Notes: generated by a model not told the origin, from the sequence alone. Counted from the stretch's first letter, positions 3,246 through 40,968 are shown. The stretch is DNA of 64,000 nucleotides from Candidatus Zhuqueibacterota bacterium (GCA_036351795.1 JAZBPW010000020.1:1418-65417), one strand, 5' to 3'. Translations and numbers: made by a program.

Positions 3246-4709
3246 TTACAGCTTCGGATGAATGATCACATCGATGCGGCGGTTTTTTGCGCGACCCTCT
3301 CTGGTCTCATTATTCGCAATGGGCTTGCTTTCGCCAAAACCGACGGACTGAATTCTGGATCCAACCACGCTCATATTCGCCTGAATATACTGGCTGACCG
3401 CATCTGCGCGCGCCTGTGAAAGCTTCATGTTCTGCTGATCACCACCATGGGAGTCGGTATGACCTTCGATGGTGAGTGTGCATTCGGGAAACATGGCTAT
3501 CGCTTCTTTGAGTTTCGCCAGCAGCTCGAAATTCTCCGCTTCGATAATCGACTTGCCAACAGGAAATGTCAATCCGATGAGGCGAACGATAATATCATCG
3601 CCCTTGCGCAACACATTGGCCTGATCCTTGGTGAACAGCTTCTCCAGATTCATGAATTTTTCACGGATCTTTGCCTGTGCTTCGATCTGTTTCGATAGTT
3701 CCGATTTCTCTTTTTCAATACCACCCAGCTTCTCTTCGAGCTCGGATATACGTGAACTCAGTAGCGTCACCTGCCGGTCTCTTTCCGAAAGATCCTGTTC
3801 CAGTGAAGCTGCCTTCTCCTGCAGCGCTGTTATATTGGAAACGATCTCATCGGTGGTTACGTCAAAACCGGTATCAAATGATCCGACGATATCGAATGTT
3901 TCAGCGATCCTGTTCAGAGGTTTTTCTGTGGAAAGGATGTAGTCCTCCAGCATATCCTCGTCATCTCTGATCTCTTTTATTCGATCCGCCAGATATAGCG
4001 CGTGTTTGGTCTCATACTTCGCCTGACGCGACAGGGATAGTGCGACATCTGTGTCATACCGGTTTTCGTTGAGCTCCTTTTCCGCCTTCGTGACAAGCTC
4101 GTTCGCTTTTTGCAGGGTTTTCGGAGCATATTTCTTTACATTCCTGTCATCAGCCTCTTTCAGCAGAGTCCATGTTTCCTTCAGATAGTTCGCCTTGATC
4201 GCTTCGAGTTCAGCCTGGCGAAACAGTGTTTCGGCCTCTCCTGATTTCTTTTTAGCGTTCTTGGTGTCGCCATCCTCAGACTCGCGCGCGGCATCATTGA
4301 AGATCTCGTCTGCTTTGAGCCACAGCTTTTGAGCGAACTCAGGTGCTCCTGCCTCTTTTGCATCGGTGCGTGCCTTGATCGAATTCGACAATGCCACTGT
4401 GGACAATTTTGTTGCCTCGAGAGCAATTTTAACATGGTTGACGCAACCGTTCAATTTCTTTCGGATGTCTTCAAGATTCTTCCCTTTCTCGAAGTCTTCT
4501 TCCGCGTCACGGTAATAATCGAATGCCTTTGAAAAACTTTTCGGCGCCAGAAGATCGGCATTCGCATCTCTGGCCTCATTCAACGCCTCGCTCGCTTCTT
4601 TGAACAGAGACGTCTTGATATCCTGTTGAGAAGATGCTGCCGTGAACCCACCAATCAGAACAGATATCAACAGACATCCCAGTACCGCAATCGTCTTTCT
4701 TTCTCGCAT
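3246..4709 (-). CDS. OmpA/MotB-family protein: signal peptide, long periplasmic coiled-coil region and a C-terminal OmpA-like peptidoglycan-binding domain.
   Basis: N-terminus 'MRERKTIAVLGCLLISVLIGGFTAASS' (signal peptide). C-terminus '...TIEGHTDSHGGDQQNMKLSQARADAV...NRRIDVII' (OmpA C-terminal motif). Confidence 0.8.
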   Translation of the reverse strand: MRERKTIAVLGCLLISVLIGGFTAASSQQDIKTSLFKEASEALNEARDANADLLAPKSFSKAFDYYRDAEEDFEKGKNLEDIRKKLNGCVNHVKIALEATKLSTVALSNSIKARTDAKEAGAPEFAQKLWLKADEIFNDAARESEDGDTKNAKKKSGEAETLFRQAELEAIKANYLKETWTLLKEADDRNVKKYAPKTLQKANELVTKAEKELNENRYDTDVALSLSRQAKYETKHALYLADRIKEIRDDEDMLEDYILSTEKPLNRIAETFDIVGSFDTGFDVTTDEIVSNITALQEKAASLEQDLSERDRQVTLLSSRISELEEKLGGIEKEKSELSKQIEAQAKIREKFMNLEKLFTKDQANVLRKGDDIIVRLIGLTFPVGKSIIEAENFELLAKLKEAIAMFPECTLTIEGHTDSHGGDQQNMKLSQARADAVSQYIQANMSVVGSRIQSVGFGESKPIANNETREGRAKNRRIDVIIHPKL

Positions 4710-36289: not shown

Positions 36290-36812
36290 TCAGACCAGCG
36301 AAGTGGATCCGAAGCTGTCAGTTTCCGATACAATTATGGCAATGGATTTAGCAGTGATGGCATCCGTGAAATAGTACTTATCCCCGTCAGGCTCGATGCG
36401 GTCATTATTTCTGGTCAGCGTACGGGGAAAAAAATAATTAGCAGCCCCGGTGATGATACCGTAATAGTCATCAAAGCCCCGCTGCATCGGCCAGTTGTGC
36501 TTTGGTTCATCGATATGACGCGTCACATGCCATTTCCCCGACATATAGGCGGCGTACCCGCCGGTCTTCAATGCCTCCGCGATGGTGACGGTGTGCTGGT
36601 TCAAATCGCCAAGATAGCCGTCGATGCCGTCATCCCCCATCATGTGTCCGACATCCGCCTGGTGGGGATGGAGACCTGTGAGCAGAGATGCCCTCGAAGG
36701 CCAGCAGCGGGCTGTGGTGTATGGATTTCTCCGCCATAACAACCGAGATCAGAGTATCCCATGTCGTCATTGAGGATCAATATGATATTAAGTTGAGTCA
36801 TTTCAAGGCCTT
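36290..36812 (-). pseudogene. Sulfatase (arylsulfatase-family) remnant. The N-terminus '[27 protein letters not shown]' (ATG at 36812) is out of frame with the CxPxR-containing segment '[16 protein letters not shown]', and the protein is truncated after ~175 aa.
   Basis: Hand translation of the reverse complement of 36721-36812 gives the canonical sulfatase N-terminus in one frame. The ORF 36290-36742 continues the family sequence in another frame. About 300 C-terminal residues are absent. Confidence 0.7.
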
Positions 36813-37250: not shown

Positions 37251-37279
37251 TTGACTTTCTCACAATAATATTCTATATT
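37251..37279 (+). promoter_or_regulatory. Candidate promoter of the marR-oxidase operon.
   Basis: TTGACT, 17 nt, TATATT, 33 nt upstream of the marR ATG. Confidence 0.4.
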
Positions 37280-37311: not shown

Positions 37312-37809
37312 ATGAATCCAAAAGATCAAAAACACGCGTCGCAACTCGCGGATATTACGTCGCTGCTGTTCACAAATTGCCAGGCCAAAGAGCTTCAACA
37401 CGCCGAGAAATACAAGGTCTCTATCATGCAGTTTCGCTGCCTGCGCATACTGCACAGCTTTAAGACACTCACCGTCAATCAACTGGCGAATGAGATGCAC
37501 CTTACCAGCGGACGAATTACACGAATCGTCGACGGGCTCGTCAAAAAACGACTTGTACACAGAAACATCGATGAACACGACCGTCGCTACTTTCACCTTA
37601 CTCTCACACCTGAAGGAAAGAAGCTGACTTCGGAGATGATCGATGACTATCACAATATCCACAGAGAGATCATTGCCAATGTTCCCGATGAATCCCGGGC
37701 TACGCTCATCGAAATGCTGACCATCCTGAACACAGCGGTGGAGGACTGGTTGTGCCACGGATCTGCAACTGATCTAAGCTACGCGAATGACGATAACTAT
37801 AAAATCTAA
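37312..37809 (+). CDS. MarR-family transcriptional regulator.
   Basis: wHTH 'LTVNQLANEMHLTSGRITRIVDGLVKKRLVHRNIDEHDRR'. Confidence 0.85.
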   Translation: MNPKDQKHASQLADITSLLFTNCQAKELQHAEKYKVSIMQFRCLRILHSFKTLTVNQLANEMHLTSGRITRIVDGLVKKRLVHRNIDEHDRRYFHLTLTPEGKKLTSEMIDDYHNIHREIIANVPDESRATLIEMLTILNTAVEDWLCHGSATDLSYANDDNYKI

Positions 37810-37821
37810 TTGAGGTGATCT

Positions 37822-40800
37822 ATGGGAAAACTATCCAAACGCGATGTACACTGGTTGCAGGAGAAATTTGGTGACCGGGTGACCTTCGACAAGACCGAGC
37901 GCGTGCTTTACGGGCATGATATTGCCGCCATGCCCAGGCTGTTCAAGCCGTTGATCGGCGACACCACCCCCGATGCCGTAGTGCAGCCTATGAACGAAAC
38001 CGAACTGGCCGAGATGGTGCACTGGGCTGCCGAAAAGAACATCCCGCTTACGCCCAGGGGCAAAGCCTCGTCAGGCTATGGCGGTGTGTTACCGACACGC
38101 AACGGGATCGTCGTCGATTTTTACAAGATGAAGGATGTCATCTCAATCGATGAAAAAAACATGACTGTCACCGTTCAGCCAGGAATCACATGGGAGCAGC
38201 TCGATAAAAAGATCGATACCAGCAATCTGGCGCTGCGTTTATACCCGTCCAGCTATCCATCATCTTCGGCAGGTGGCTGGCTGGCACAGGGCGGCGCCGG
38301 CTTCGGATCTTACGAATACGGCTGGTTTTCCGAAAATGTGGAATCCGCGAACATCGTTTTGCCCACCGGAGAGATCAAAAAAATCTCCGGCGATGAACTG
38401 GACATGGTAGCCGATGCCGAGGGAATCACCGGCATCATCAGCGAAGTGACGGTGAAGCTGCAGCCAAAGACTGATCTCGGGATCATCGCCATCGCCTTTC
38501 CGGATTCCGAAAAATTTACCCGTGCCATGAAGGACGTCGTCGACAGTGGCATGCCGGTATGGTCGATCATCTTCATCAATCCCAAGATGGCGGAGATGAA
38601 AAACCGCGCACCGCAGATGCTGCATCACGGTCATCCTGTCGGACACAAACCACTGCTGCCTGCCGCATACATTGCCACGATCGCGTTTCGTGAATCAGAC
38701 AGGTCAGCAGTGCTGGAAAAGCTTCCCGGCATCCTCGACAGCCACGAGGGTGAGATGCTGAGCCAGGAGATCGCGGATCACGAGTGGGAGGAGCGGTTCA
38801 AATTGATGGTCGTCAAGAGACTTGGACCGTCGCTGGTACCGGCGGAAGTGGTTGTGCCCCTGAAGAACTTCGACAAGGTGATGTCTGAAATTGAAAGAAA
38901 GGTAGATCAGCCCGTGGTCAAGGAGGGTGTGCTGATCAGGGATGGCGCTGATGGCGAACCGGAAGTCGTAATCCTGGGCTTCATCCCGAGCGACCAGAGG
39001 AAATTCGCATACAATCTGGTGTTCGGTCTCGTGCTCACCATTCTGAAGATCGCCGAGAAGCATGGCGGCAGGGCCTATTCAACCGGACTCTATTTTTCCA
39101 GCAGGGCAAAAGATATCCTCGGCGCCGAACGCCACGACAGGTTGAAAGCGTACAAGAAACAGGCCGATCCGAAAGGGCTGCTCAATCCGGACAAGGTGAT
39201 CGGCAAGAAGCTCATCGGACGCATACTGGGCATGGCCAATCTGCTGGAGCCGCTCGCCCGGCCGTTCGGAAATCTGTTCATACAGAAAGTGGGTGAACGT
39301 CCTGAAATGAAACAGGTGAGAGACATTCCGGGTGACGTTGCCTGGTACGCCTACGCCTGTTCGCAGTGCGGTTATTGCGTGGATGAATGCGATCAGTTTT
39401 ATGGACGCGGCTGGGAAAGCCAGTCGCCGCGTGGAAAATGGTACTGGTTACGTGAATATATGGAAGGGAAGGCCGACTGGGATCAGAAGATGGTGGATAC
39501 GATGCTCGTCTGCACAACCTGCGAGTTGTGCAATCTTCGCTGCTCCGCCTCGCTCCCCATCGAACAGTCATGGATGAAACTGCGCGGCAAGCTTGTCCAT
39601 GAAAATAAAGAGATGACATTCCCGCCCTTCGAAATGATGGGCGCCGCCCTGAATTCGGAAGGCAATATCTGGGCTGGTTACCGGAGCAACCGCACGGACT
39701 GGTTCCCCAAAGAACTTTGGGAAAAGCATGGACCGAAGCACAAGAGCAAGAACGTCTATTTCGCGGGTTGCACCGCATCCTATGTCGAACACGACATCGG
39801 CGCTGCTTCTGTGACCCTTCTGGATGCGGCTGGGGTCGATTTCACCTATCTCGGCAAGGCGGAGAACTGCTGCGCCACGCCCATGCTCGTTGCCGGTAAA
39901 TGGGATCTCTTCACCAAGGTGATGAAACAGAATATCGAAAACGTAAAGGCCGCCGGCGCGGATACAGTCATTTCATCCTGTCCCGCCTGCGACATGATGT
40001 GGCGACATACGTACAAAGAGTGGGCGGAGAAGCTCGGTATCGAGTACAATATCAAGGCGAAACACTACAGCGAGATCATTGCCGGGAAGATTGATTCCGG
40101 CGAGTTCAAGTACACCAAAGAGATCAAACAGCGCGTCACCTGGCACGATTCATGTCACATCGGCCGTGTCTCAGGTGTCTACGAAGAGCCACGCAAAATG
40201 ATCCAGGCCATTCCGGGCATCGACTTTGTTGAGATGCGGCACAATCGCGACGAAGGGCATTGCTGCGGCAGTGTGCTCACGTTGATCAAGGATCCGCTGG
40301 TCGCGCATGAAGTGGGTAAACACCGGCTCGACGATGCCATCGAGAATGAGTCTGAATCCGTACTCGCGCTCTGTCCCTGCTGTGAATTTCAGCTGCGCGT
40401 GAGTCAGCAGAAGAAAGATATTCCGCTGGAAATTCACGACCTCGCCGCATTCGCCTGCAAGGCGCTTGGAAAAGAGTTCAAAGACCCGAATCCCGAGGTG
40501 GCAAAACAGTGGGCCGTATTCGAGGGCATGATTGCGCTAATGACGCCGAAAGGTTTCGCGGAGCTGATGGACAGCATGTGGCCGGAATTGCTCAGGGCAA
40601 TGCCACTCGGCATGGGCGGTATGATGAAGGCCATCGGCAAGCTGGGCTTTGTCGGCGACGCCATGTTCGCCGCCATGAAGCCCATATTTCCTGTGCTTTT
40701 TCCAAAGCTGTTGCCGGGTATGATGCCGAAGGTGATGCCGACCATGCTGTCCCGCGTGGGCGACAGGATACCCATGCCGGATTACATGGCGGAACAGATG

Positions 40801-40923
40801 CCGGATATGATGCCCCAGATCATGGACAATCTGATGCCGAAGATGCTGCCGGACGTTGTACCGCTGGTCGTCCCGAAGATGATCGACCATCTGCGCGGAC
40901 GCAACGGCACTCATTTACATTAA
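37822..40923 (+). CDS. Fused FAD-linked oxidase (GlcD-like) plus Fe-S/CCG-domain (GlcF/HdrD-like) oxidoreductase of the YdiJ type. The C-terminal ~140 aa form a Met/Pro-rich tail.
   Basis: FAD_binding_4 region (residues 40-230). Ferredoxin-like 'CSQCGYCVDECDQ', 'CTTCELCNLRCSAS'. CCG-like 'CCAT...SSCPAC', 'CCGS...CPCC'. Tail 'LLPGMMPKVMPTMLSRVGDRIPMPDYMAEQMPDMMPQIMDNLMPKMLPDVVPLVVPKMIDHL'. Confidence 0.8.
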   Translation: MGKLSKRDVHWLQEKFGDRVTFDKTERVLYGHDIAAMPRLFKPLIGDTTPDAVVQPMNETELAEMVHWAAEKNIPLTPRGKASSGYGGVLPTRNGIVVDFYKMKDVISIDEKNMTVTVQPGITWEQLDKKIDTSNLALRLYPSSYPSSSAGGWLAQGGAGFGSYEYGWFSENVESANIVLPTGEIKKISGDELDMVADAEGITGIISEVTVKLQPKTDLGIIAIAFPDSEKFTRAMKDVVDSGMPVWSIIFINPKMAEMKNRAPQMLHHGHPVGHKPLLPAAYIATIAFRESDRSAVLEKLPGILDSHEGEMLSQEIADHEWEERFKLMVVKRLGPSLVPAEVVVPLKNFDKVMSEIERKVDQPVVKEGVLIRDGADGEPEVVILGFIPSDQRKFAYNLVFGLVLTILKIAEKHGGRAYSTGLYFSSRAKDILGAERHDRLKAYKKQADPKGLLNPDKVIGKKLIGRILGMANLLEPLARPFGNLFIQKVGERPEMKQVRDIPGDVAWYAYACSQCGYCVDECDQFYGRGWESQSPRGKWYWLREYMEGKADWDQKMVDTMLVCTTCELCNLRCSASLPIEQSWMKLRGKLVHENKEMTFPPFEMMGAALNSEGNIWAGYRSNRTDWFPKELWEKHGPKHKSKNVYFAGCTASYVEHDIGAASVTLLDAAGVDFTYLGKAENCCATPMLVAGKWDLFTKVMKQNIENVKAAGADTVISSCPACDMMWRHTYKEWAEKLGIEYNIKAKHYSEIIAGKIDSGEFKYTKEIKQRVTWHDSCHIGRVSGVYEEPRKMIQAIPGIDFVEMRHNRDEGHCCGSVLTLIKDPLVAHEVGKHRLDDAIENESESVLALCPCCEFQLRVSQQKKDIPLEIHDLAAFACKALGKEFKDPNPEVAKQWAVFEGMIALMTPKGFAELMDSMWPELLRAMPLGMGGMMKAIGKLGFVGDAMFAAMKPIFPVLFPKLLPGMMPKVMPTMLSRVGDRIPMPDYMAEQMPDMMPQIMDNLMPKMLPDVVPLVVPKMIDHLRGRNGTHLH

Positions 40924-40931
40924 AAAAAATA

Positions 40932-40968
40932 GACCCGGCGTCGAACTGCAGGCGCCGGGTCTCTTATT
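40932..40968 (+). terminator. Intrinsic terminator of the marR-oxidase operon.
   Basis: A 9-bp GC-rich stem (gacccggcg / cgccgggtc), followed by 'tcttattc', immediately after the stop. Confidence 0.55.

Follow-up and report, generated by a model that had tools for sequence, protein, structure and literature searches.

What purpose is served by a C-terminal region unusually rich in methionine and proline that closes an otherwise recognizable flavo-iron-sulfur enzyme? The question is raised by a gene on the plus strand of a 64,000-nt stretch of DNA from Candidatus Zhuqueibacterota bacterium (GCA_036351795.1 JAZBPW010000020.1:1418-65417), hereafter the window, which is numbered from its first letter. 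The gene encodes a 1033-amino acid (aa) protein with domains for flavin adenine dinucleotide (FAD) and for iron-sulfur clusters, the last ~140 residues of which (the tail) had been singled out in an earlier note. Judged from sequence comparisons, the tail is a real, family-specific conserved domain, with selection for Met itself and a repeat of period 4. The features of the gene, all of them on the plus strand, are the following.

37822..40923, plus strand: FAD / 2x[4Fe-4S] / 2xCCG oxidoreductase with a Met/Pro C-terminal domain, 1033 aa (Pfam, NCBIfam, homologues, AlphaFold2)
37969..38385, plus strand: FAD_binding_4 domain, aa 50-188 (Pfam E 2.8e-38)
38485..39198, plus strand: FAD-oxidase_C cap domain, aa 222-459 (Pfam E 1.1e-7)
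39355..39555, plus strand: Fer4_17 dicluster domain, aa 512-578, with two CxxCxxCxxxC motifs (Pfam E 4e-9)
39751..40002, plus strand: CCG domain 1, aa ~644-727, with C650, C683, C684, C720 and C723 (boundaries by inspection of the Cys motif)
40135..40398, plus strand: CCG domain 2, aa 772-859, with C778, C814, C815, C851, C853 and C854 (best Pfam CCG stretch)
40489..40638, plus strand: N-terminal part of the tail, aa 890-939, four predicted short helices (AlphaFold2, alignment)
40648..40767, plus strand: predicted long helix A of the tail, aa 943-982 (AlphaFold2, periodicity)
40780..40893, plus strand: predicted long helix B of the tail, aa 987-1024 (AlphaFold2, periodicity)

Positions 40500-40923 correspond to residues ~893-1033 plus the stop codon of this open reading frame (ORF). 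The earlier note had counted more than 20 Met among the last ~140 residues, and the count holds: 23 of the last 140 residues are Met (16.4%; 3.4% in residues 1-880; binomial P 5e-10) and 17 are Pro (12.1%; 5.1% in residues 1-880; P 9e-4). The motifs quoted there are found as well, MMPKVMP at residues 967-973, MPDMMPQIM at 993-1001 and LMPKMLP at 1004-1010. In the tail domain itself, ~135 residues long, Met makes up ~18% and Pro ~13%, both placed in a strict register of four residues. Its frame runs on unbroken from the CCG domain, and the same frame is kept in hundreds of homologues; of the two other forward frames over the tail, one includes many stops and the other is open, with an unrelated Arg/Gly/Asp/His-rich product.

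When the tail alone was used as a query, 332 homologues were obtained that share 64-88% identity and in which the Met and Pro positions are invariant. Full-length homologues of 1024-1036 aa (69-97% identity) come from KSB1, Aminicenantes, Acidobacteriota and Desulfobacterota-type metagenome-assembled genomes (MAGs), to which tail-only matches and genome loci add the Zixibacteria. Homologues with 36-55% identity are present in Dehalococcoidia, Chloroflexota, Clostridia (among them the isolate Thermanaeromonas toyohensis) and Bipolaricaulota, and also in an archaeon, Methanoperedens. All 70 of the 70 diverse full-length homologues that were aligned carry the tail, down to 36% identity, with a median tail Met content of 17.6%, and at least 14.5% Met is reached in 434 of 436 distinct tails. 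When 1.84 billion (1.84e9) protein cluster representatives were searched exhaustively with a profile, 251 matches were returned, the best 150 of which are proteins of ~1000-1030 aa (1002-1030 aa for the full-length ones) with the tail at their C-terminus (residues ~870-1025), or shorter pieces; the ten matches inspected individually all belong to this family or are N-terminally truncated parts of it. At least 546 stretches were confirmed in a collection with one genome per species. Longer variants of the family carry low-complexity extensions only, transmembrane or cytochrome domains having been sought in them without success. Neither orthologues devoid of the tail nor any with a neutrally evolving tail turned up when they were sought, a single truncated remnant excepted.

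Across phyla, identities of 60-80% are reached within the family. Mean pairwise identity is 48% in the tail and 47% in the FAD domain, and the ratio of nonsynonymous to synonymous substitution rates (dN/dS) of the tail is ~0.05. Met columns of the tail hold Met in 80% of the sequences and Leu, Ile, Val or Phe in 15%, whereas for Met columns of the body the corresponding values are 41 and 41%. As Met columns of the tail stay Met to this extent, it is Met itself that is selected, beyond hydrophobicity. Residues W897, F900 and M985, the last of them at the turn between helices A and B, are invariant in the tail, and no invariant His or Cys is found there in the alignment of 70 sequences. Two homologues, P0367 (Dehalogenimonas sp.) and P0271, keep the register of the Pro tetrads with tail Met contents of 6.7 and 9.5%, Met being replaced by Ile, Leu or Val; they represent natural controls that separate the fold from Met-richness.

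A search of the tail alone against domain databases, as the earlier note had proposed, gave no match in any of them: no family was detected in Pfam-A or NCBIfam at E values up to 1, the best E value against PDB sequences was 1.5, and the best Foldseek E value against PDB folds was 4.7. A description of a Met/Pro tail was sought in the literature and none was found. That note had anticipated that the tail might turn out to be a known conserved domain of its enzyme family; a conserved domain it is, but one for which the database and literature searches gave no previous description.

The probability that the tail be an artefact of low complexity, of a frame shift or of annotation is close to negligible. 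Many of the database matches are indeed short 'proteins' of 130-250 aa, as such an artefact might produce. Those that were checked on long contigs, however, correspond to independent single frameshifts: in three MAG copies a single frameshift is found, each time at a different position (L090:~4471-4571, L091:~4483-4493 and L093:~4385-4390), and in these three cases the short proteins were rejected as stand-alone tails. Frameshifts of this kind give rise to spurious 'tail proteins' of 150-200 aa in the databases, which accounts for many of the short matches in the tail search; several other short matches, located on ~1-kb contigs, start inside the CCG domain and look like contig-end fragments. 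Homologues cut neither by a contig end nor by a frameshift carry the tail in frame, as all 70 aligned homologues do, and the low dN/dS and a confidently predicted fold argue in the same direction; a frame artefact absent from orthologues, the refutation that the earlier note had envisaged, is thus not what was encountered.

One copy in an Aminicenantes-like MAG (L033:2951-3490, contig CAYULB010000017.1) consists of the last ~166 codons alone, in an intact ORF of 179 aa (P0014), and nothing upstream of it matches residues 1-862. P0014 is reported on 5 contigs, and its dN/dS relative to the nearest full-length relatives is 0.04-0.11. Either the gene was truncated recently or the ORF encodes a tail protein in its own right.

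The full-length AlphaFold2 model, built on the 70-sequence alignment, shows a predicted local distance difference test value (pLDDT) of 90.6 and a predicted template modelling score (pTM) of 0.89, with pLDDT values of 83-91 in the tail. Helices are predicted there at residues 890-906, 909-917, 920-926, 928-939, 943-982 and 987-1024, the last two, long helices A and B, being antiparallel and ~40 residues long each. When the tail was modelled alone (pLDDT 89.9, pTM 0.80), identical helix boundaries were obtained, and as the same helices are formed in isolation the tail is predicted to be an autonomous domain. The models therefore give good support to the tail (~890-1024) as an autonomously folding, all-alpha domain in which four short helices would pack on a hairpin of long helices.

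Both long helices are built from tetrads of the form Phi-P-x-Phi. Helix A includes FPVL, FPKL, LPGM, MPKV and MPTM and has a net charge of +3, while helix B includes MPDM, MPQI, MDNL, MPKM, LPDV, VPLV and VPKM and has a net charge of -4. Position 1 of the tetrad is occupied by Met (51%) or Leu, position 2 by Pro (69%), position 3 by polar residues and position 4 by Met, Leu or Val. Pro-Pro spacings of 4, 8 and 12 residues occur 477, 437 and 365 times, vs ~150, 143 and 134 times in shuffled sequences, and all other spacings except 11 are depleted. The hydrophobic moment of the long helices peaks (0.45) at 90 degrees per residue. The tandem tetrads would thus result in continuous Met stripes with a period of 4.0 residues, beside a Pro stripe and a polar stripe. 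At the DNA level, a check for tandem repeats detected only a weak signal (12 nt, 2.8 copies) at 40773-40805; the periodicity is therefore maintained in the protein sequence and does not stem from a recent expansion of the DNA.

Coevolution was analyzed in 434 tails by mean-field direct-coupling analysis (DCA), which detects coevolving residue pairs. Pairs that would close the hairpin (980-990, 967-997, 956-1004 and 946-1025) account for 6 of the top 40 (P 0.018), and 8 of the top 40 join residues 909-927 to 1008-1024, that is, the short helices to the end of helix B (P 8e-5). Coevolution hence lends modest backing to the hairpin and clearer backing to the packing of the bundle. The amphipathic helical hairpin imagined in the earlier note agrees with the AlphaFold2 prediction and with this modest backing; what does not stand is a classical 3.6-residue period, as the period found is 4.0. 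Pairs between body and tail (863-894, 862-890, 605-983 and 618/620-952) are also found within the top 65 of all pairs. Along with the pTM of the full-length model, they suggest that the tail docks on the CCG (HdrD-like) module, and prediction and coevolution together indicate that it probably contacts this module.

In hydrophobicity the tail exceeds the rest of the protein, with a grand average of hydropathicity (GRAVY) of +0.35 and with 53% apolar residues plus 12% Pro, while the catalytic domains have GRAVY values of -0.2 to -0.4 and 39-41% apolar residues. No transmembrane-grade segment was found: the maximal Kyte-Doolittle mean over 19 residues is 1.41 (residues 941-959), and the protein does not classify as an integral membrane protein.

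A Gly/Met motif, GMGGMMKAIGK, is located in the N-terminal part of the tail, with the family consensus GMGxMMRxMGKxPG. The stretch GMGGMMKAIGKL at window positions 40606-40641 (aa 929-940) resembles the finger loop of E. coli Ffh, NMGGMASLMGKLPGM. Like the SRP54/Ffh M domain, with its 'methionine bristles', the tail is cytoplasmic, helical and Met-rich, and locally GMGGMMKAIGKL can be set against NMGGMASLMGKL; a repeat of Pro tetrads such as that of the tail is, however, absent from the M domain. Homology to the M domain, a likeness that the earlier note had brought up, was rejected: hhalign with E. coli Ffh gave a probability of 4.3% over a local match of 18 columns, and Foldseek gave no match. 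With so low a probability, the likeness to the finger loop is to be regarded as compositional or convergent.

To which enzymes does the body of the protein belong? The scores for FAD_binding_4 and FAD-oxidase_C are both above the gathering score, which places the protein among the VAO/PCMH-type FAD-linked oxidoreductases, and the modelled FAD module matches mouse D-lactate dehydrogenase 8jdv (Foldseek E 2e-24, target-normalised TM-score 0.85). The dicluster ferredoxin is followed by two CCG domains with all their Cys, the arrangement of a Dld-II/HdrD-type iron-sulfur module; Pfam CCG is matched in two stretches (E 4e-28), and every Cys of Fer4_17 and of both CCG motifs is invariant in the 70-sequence alignment. 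In agreement with this, residues 513-875 match models of the HdrD/GlpC/GlcF/TfrB/LdhH type with E values from 1e-17 to 1e-42 and the N-terminal half matches GlcD (NCBIfam), the C-terminal half of the enzyme being an HdrD/GlpC/TfrB-type module with two CCG domains. Individual equivalogs were rejected: LdhH scores 144 bits (cutoff 800), TfrB 138 (385), GlpC 107 (278), GlcF 62 (333) and DsrK 50 (400).

The NCBIfam models of the GlcD, GlcF, GlpC, LdhH, TfrB and DsrK type stop at the second CCG, the LdhH match reaching position 702 of 706 of its model. In the CCG modules of HdrD, GlpC, GlcF, TfrB, LdhH and SdhE both CCG motifs are present with all Cys, as they are here, but none of them carries the tail. 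The earlier note had regarded such a tail as foreign to GlcD-, GlcF- and YdiJ-type enzymes, and this was borne out, since their models end at CCG and the C-terminus of E. coli YdiJ lacks it. Its label 'YdiJ-like', by contrast, is a loose description only. E. coli YdiJ, a D-2-hydroxyglutarate dehydrogenase, is similar in length (1018 aa), in having FAD_binding_4 and FAD-oxidase_C at its N-terminus and in having an iron-sulfur region, but it shows no Pfam CCG match and no Met/Pro tail. Orthology was rejected both with the NCBIfam model for YdiJ (NF049975; 52 bits against a cutoff of 1350, residues 48-215 only) and with the E. coli protein itself, since BLASTP covers the FAD domain only (29% identity over 140 aa).

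The closest arrangement is that of Dld-II-type D-lactate dehydrogenases, in which a single polypeptide contains FAD_binding_4, FAD-oxidase_C, a 4Fe-4S dicluster and two CCG domains in the same order (PMC4481167). Examples are Dld-II of Shewanella oneidensis and DVU3071 and DVU0253 of Desulfovibrio, with a split form in DVU3027-28 (PMC4481167). The ~135-aa Met/Pro domain lies outside the domain set given for Dld-II (PMC4481167). A further difference concerns the active site. D-Lactate and D-2-hydroxyacid dehydrogenases have a His/His/Glu metal triad and a GEHG motif with an essential His that binds lactate (PMC4481167). In the alignment to mouse LDHD, GDGNFH stands opposite GADGEPE and GEHGIG opposite GRAYSTGL (window 38935-39100, aa ~372-426). 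A family-invariant GGRxYSTGLYF replaces the GEHG region, and in the 70-sequence alignment G416, Y419 and G422 are invariant. As metal triad and GEHG motif are both absent, membership in the D-lactate/D-2-hydroxyacid dehydrogenases (LDHD, D2HGDH, Dld-II) was rejected; with the metal- and lactate-binding residues replaced, the substrate is probably not D-lactate, and the chemistry of the FAD module probably differs from that of Dld-II or LDHD. By its domain signatures, then, the family is an uncharacterised variant of the Dld-II/HdrD-type flavo-iron-sulfur dehydrogenases and not a YdiJ orthologue.

The neighbourhood of the gene in the window includes three further features.

37251..37279, plus strand: sigma-70-like promoter site, TTGACT-17-TATATT, 5' of the MarR gene (10 of 12 positions match)
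37312..37809, plus strand: MarR-family regulator, 165 aa (Pfam MarR E 9e-13)
40931..40962, plus strand: GC-rich 12-bp hairpin, 8 nt after the stop codon (dG -25.6 kcal/mol, z -4.3)

The MarR gene stops 12 nt before the ATG of the oxidoreductase gene, and with such a gap both genes are probably co-transcribed. The nearest NCBIfam models of the regulator are HpaR, BilQ and FabT, all of them under their cutoffs. A MarR gene is found in the same upstream position in ~9 KSB1-like loci, and Cys is conserved within the motifs 'LF[ST]NC' and 'FRC' of the MarR proteins. In at least 12 other loci (Zixibacteria, Anaerolineae, Dehalococcoidia, Aminicenantes and others) the upstream regulator is of the ArsR/SmtB type (HTH_5); a search of these ArsR-like proteins for metal sites found no invariant Cys pair and no conserved canonical site. 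The MarR control proposed in the earlier note is thus retained for the KSB1-like lineage and not for other phyla, where an ArsR/SmtB-type regulator or none lies upstream. That note had also spoken of a clean promoter and terminator. Candidates for both are present, but the scan for sigma-70-like sites gave 5 when 3.8 are expected by chance, so that the promoter is weak evidence, and a pattern scan called no terminator. A search around the MarR promoter detected no operator-like inverted repeat. The hairpin at 40931-40962 is preceded by A8 and followed by CUUAUUC, a poor U-tract. It is likely a terminator, and it may act in both directions: as A8 on its 5' side means that T8 follows on the minus strand, it looks a better terminator for leftward transcription (window 40921-40962).

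Neighbouring genes were surveyed by clustering ORFs in ~81 loci and by five further look-ups of context. Neither a conserved partner nor a membrane-subunit gene was found beside the family gene in ~85 loci, and the gene mostly stands alone. Apart from winged helix-turn-helix (wHTH) regulators, only lineage-specific synteny was detected in the ~81 loci, with a MenC-like gene, DUF4097, sigma/anti-sigma genes and NifU/IscS. A gene of the o-succinylbenzoate synthase type (TIGR01928, 340 bits, cutoff 200.65) lies up to three genes upstream in 23 of 81 loci; the loci with it that were read individually are Aminicenantes-type, in the same orientation (e.g., L001:4685-5797 and L025:4141-5253). In E. 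coli, ydiJ overlaps menI by 4 nt (L084:2223-2633). A link between FAD/Fe-S dehydrogenases and menaquinone genes may recur, or this may be lineage synteny.

Other neighbours are found in single loci. A multihaem/cytochrome-b gene adjoins the closest KSB1-type homologue, and a UbiE-type methyltransferase gene lies near the Methanoperedens copy. In a Zixibacteria MAG, genes for FMN_red/flavodoxin-like, LPG_synthase_C, HMA-domain P-type ATPase and YHS-domain proteins are located 3' of the frameshifted copy (L091:5136-9410), the only locus seen with a heavy-metal-type neighbourhood. In T. toyohensis (L085:3766-6816) a full-length YgfK-type protein, a putative selenate reductase subunit (TIGR03315, 1589 bits), is encoded upstream and an HSP20 gene downstream on the opposite strand. 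In the window itself, a 150-aa ORF on the minus strand (36290-36742) shows by inspection a sulfatase-type CxPSR motif near its start; being far below sulfatase length, it may be a gene fragment or a pseudogene.

What, then, may the tail do? We tentatively propose, with a confidence that falls somewhat short of an even chance, that the tail offers a lipophilic acceptor a hydrophobic platform, deformable and lined with Met; the most plausible acceptor would be menaquinone of the membrane. The tail directly follows the CCG domains, which in relatives hold the catalytic or terminal iron-sulfur clusters, and such a platform would allow an otherwise soluble enzyme without further subunits to encounter menaquinone where the membrane faces the cytoplasm. 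The same role falls, in relatives, either to a separate subunit, a cytochrome b or a membrane anchor (HdrE, DsrM, the membrane domain of EtfD), or to amphipathic helices (SdhE, GlpC). Expression would be regulator-linked (MarR here, ArsR-type elsewhere) or stand-alone, and regulators of these types imply induction by a small-molecule or redox signal. The CCG subunits SdhE, GlpC and GlcF are regarded as probable monotopic anchors from which electrons reach the quinone pool (PMC2754724). In EtfD, the CCG/ferredoxin wire, whose CCG clusters are shielded, ends at heme b and menaquinone, and in HdrDE as well as in EtfD it terminates at a membrane cytochrome b and quinone (PMC13083937). A lipophilic acceptor is suggested because the CCG wires of relatives reach quinone or are monotopic anchors, because the family has no partner subunit and because the tail is the sole markedly hydrophobic part of the protein. 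Weak genomic hints toward menaquinone are provided by the TIGR01928 neighbour, the cytochrome-b neighbour of the KSB1-type homologue and the UbiE-type neighbour in Methanoperedens.

Several points weigh against this proposal. The window protein contains no segment of transmembrane hydrophobicity, the amphipathic period is 4.0 and not 3.6, and the charges of helix A (+) and helix B (-) are complementary. Complementary charges together with coevolution within the domain, for which DCA rests on ~71-76 effective sequences only, mean that the tail could equally well be a closed soluble bundle with a Met-rich core; moreover, as its net charge is ~-1, there would be no electrostatic attraction to anionic lipid. 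The family is found in Dehalococcoidales and Bipolaricaulota MAGs and, to our knowledge, quinone biosynthesis is missing in many members of both groups. Being confined to one phylum, the MenC-like neighbour counts as a single evolutionary event, and TIGR01928 takes in N-succinylamino-acid racemases as well.

Anchors of the NDH-2 and sulfide:quinone oxidoreductase (SQR) type offer an analogy, since they also consist of a C-terminal helix pair, more hydrophobic than the body, on a flavoenzyme that lacks a membrane subunit. The tail differs from them in its much greater length (135 aa), its period of 4.0, the Pro at every fourth residue and its net charge of ~-1; the anchors are rich in Phe, Leu, Trp and Lys, whereas the tail is rich in Met, and neither sequence nor fold similarity is found. 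The tail does not show the features of a monotopic amphipathic-helix anchor of this type (a 3.6-residue period and a cationic interface), with a hydrophobic moment of 0.04-0.16 at 100 degrees and a net charge of -1. This lowers the probability that the tail is such an anchor and leaves untouched the proposal that it docks on a hydrophobic phase. A bolder form of the proposal, for which we see some chance though on the doubtful side, is that the tail is a 'methionine zipper', a new class of cofactor-free domain that would open or deform into the membrane surface or clasp an isoprenoid quinone.

The hydrophobic platform has to be weighed against other readings of the same data. The tail might be a domain for protein-protein interaction or oligomerisation, with a plastic Met-rich surface such as that of calmodulin or the SRP54 M domain, serving either an enzyme dimer or a partner encoded elsewhere (an electron carrier, a thiol-carrier protein). 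We consider this doubtful. Long antiparallel helical hairpins, as predicted for the tail, are common dimerisation modules; the preference for Met over Leu, Ile and Val is that of promiscuous hydrophobic binding surfaces; the tail is predicted to fold alone, one genome keeps nothing else of the gene (the 179-aa ORF, with its low dN/dS), and the short consensus motif recalls the Ffh finger loop. But the survey of ~85 loci gave no conserved partner gene, and neither the hhalign probability with Ffh nor the fold comparison by Foldseek points to a relative among such domains. It is unlikely, too, that the tail is a lid, capping the noncubane-cluster site of the CCG domains and forming a Met-lined pocket for a soluble small molecule (an organic disulfide or persulfide, or a hydrophobic thiol cofactor) while also shielding the clusters from solvent. 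The tail is fused straight onto CCG2, residues 602-620 and the last CCG helix take part in the coevolution between body and tail, the regulators upstream are thiol-rich MarR or ArsR/BigR-like proteins, and CCG clusters are the catalytic disulfide-reducing site in Hdr and are shielded in EtfD (PMC13083937). On the other hand, ~135 residues with helices 60 angstroms long far exceed what a lid needs, and the Cys residues of the regulators are not invariant in the ArsR group.

Lower probabilities are given to two readings that build on the thioethers of Met. The tail could be a sacrificial antioxidant or a redox switch, in which the formation of Met sulfoxide protects or reversibly inactivates an oxygen-labile iron-sulfur enzyme; we regard this as quite improbable. 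It would fit with the selection of Met itself rather than of hydrophobicity in general, with anaerobic hosts (as judged by the 2-oxoacid:ferredoxin oxidoreductase in the window and by the taxa of the MAGs) and with the conserved Cys in the MarR proteins upstream, MarR-type regulators with conserved Cys often being oxidant sensors. No msrA or msrB is linked to the gene in the loci examined, however, and whereas scavenging needs no fixed fold, the strict conservation of positions and the tetrad register favour a structural role. Binding of a soft metal such as Cu(I) or Ag(I) by Met, as in the 'Mets' motifs of CusF, PcoC, CueO and Ctr1, is very improbable. It could account for the many Met pairs at i/i+3 and i/i+4 and for the conservation of Met, and an ArsR/SmtB-family regulator upstream in at least 12 loci as well as the HMA P-type ATPase and YHS-domain gene downstream in one Zixibacteria locus would suit it. 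Yet the known Mets motifs function outside the cytoplasm, in oxidising compartments, and are mostly disordered and rich in His and Gly, while this protein is cytoplasmic, with a polar N-terminus, no hydrophobic or twin-arginine signal by inspection, and FAD and iron-sulfur domains; its ArsR-like regulators lack canonical metal sites, and the link to an ATPase is limited to a single locus. Given a cytoplasmic protein, a tail in which neither His nor Cys is invariant, and two natural variants that keep the Pro register, and with it the signature of the fold, at 7-10% Met, metal binding is the least likely of the roles considered; the likeness to Cu(I) 'Mets' motifs drawn in the earlier note found no support in the searches of PDB sequences and with Foldseek.

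A domain so rich in Met and Pro, in a strict register of four, is an unusual combination of sequence and structure for which no relative has been described. If the tail is a closed structural bundle, it would be a useful test case for periodic Pro in helices and for Met selection in a core. If instead it is a methionine zipper, a flavo-iron-sulfur dehydrogenase made of a single polypeptide would feed the quinone pool of anaerobes without a membrane subunit, and the stand-alone tail ORF of the Aminicenantes-like MAG would be a free-living version of the module. Should the tail be what brings the enzyme to a lipophilic acceptor, its profile would also provide a handle for annotating this widespread family, and a new kind of connection between the membrane and soluble redox enzymes of anaerobes would come to light.

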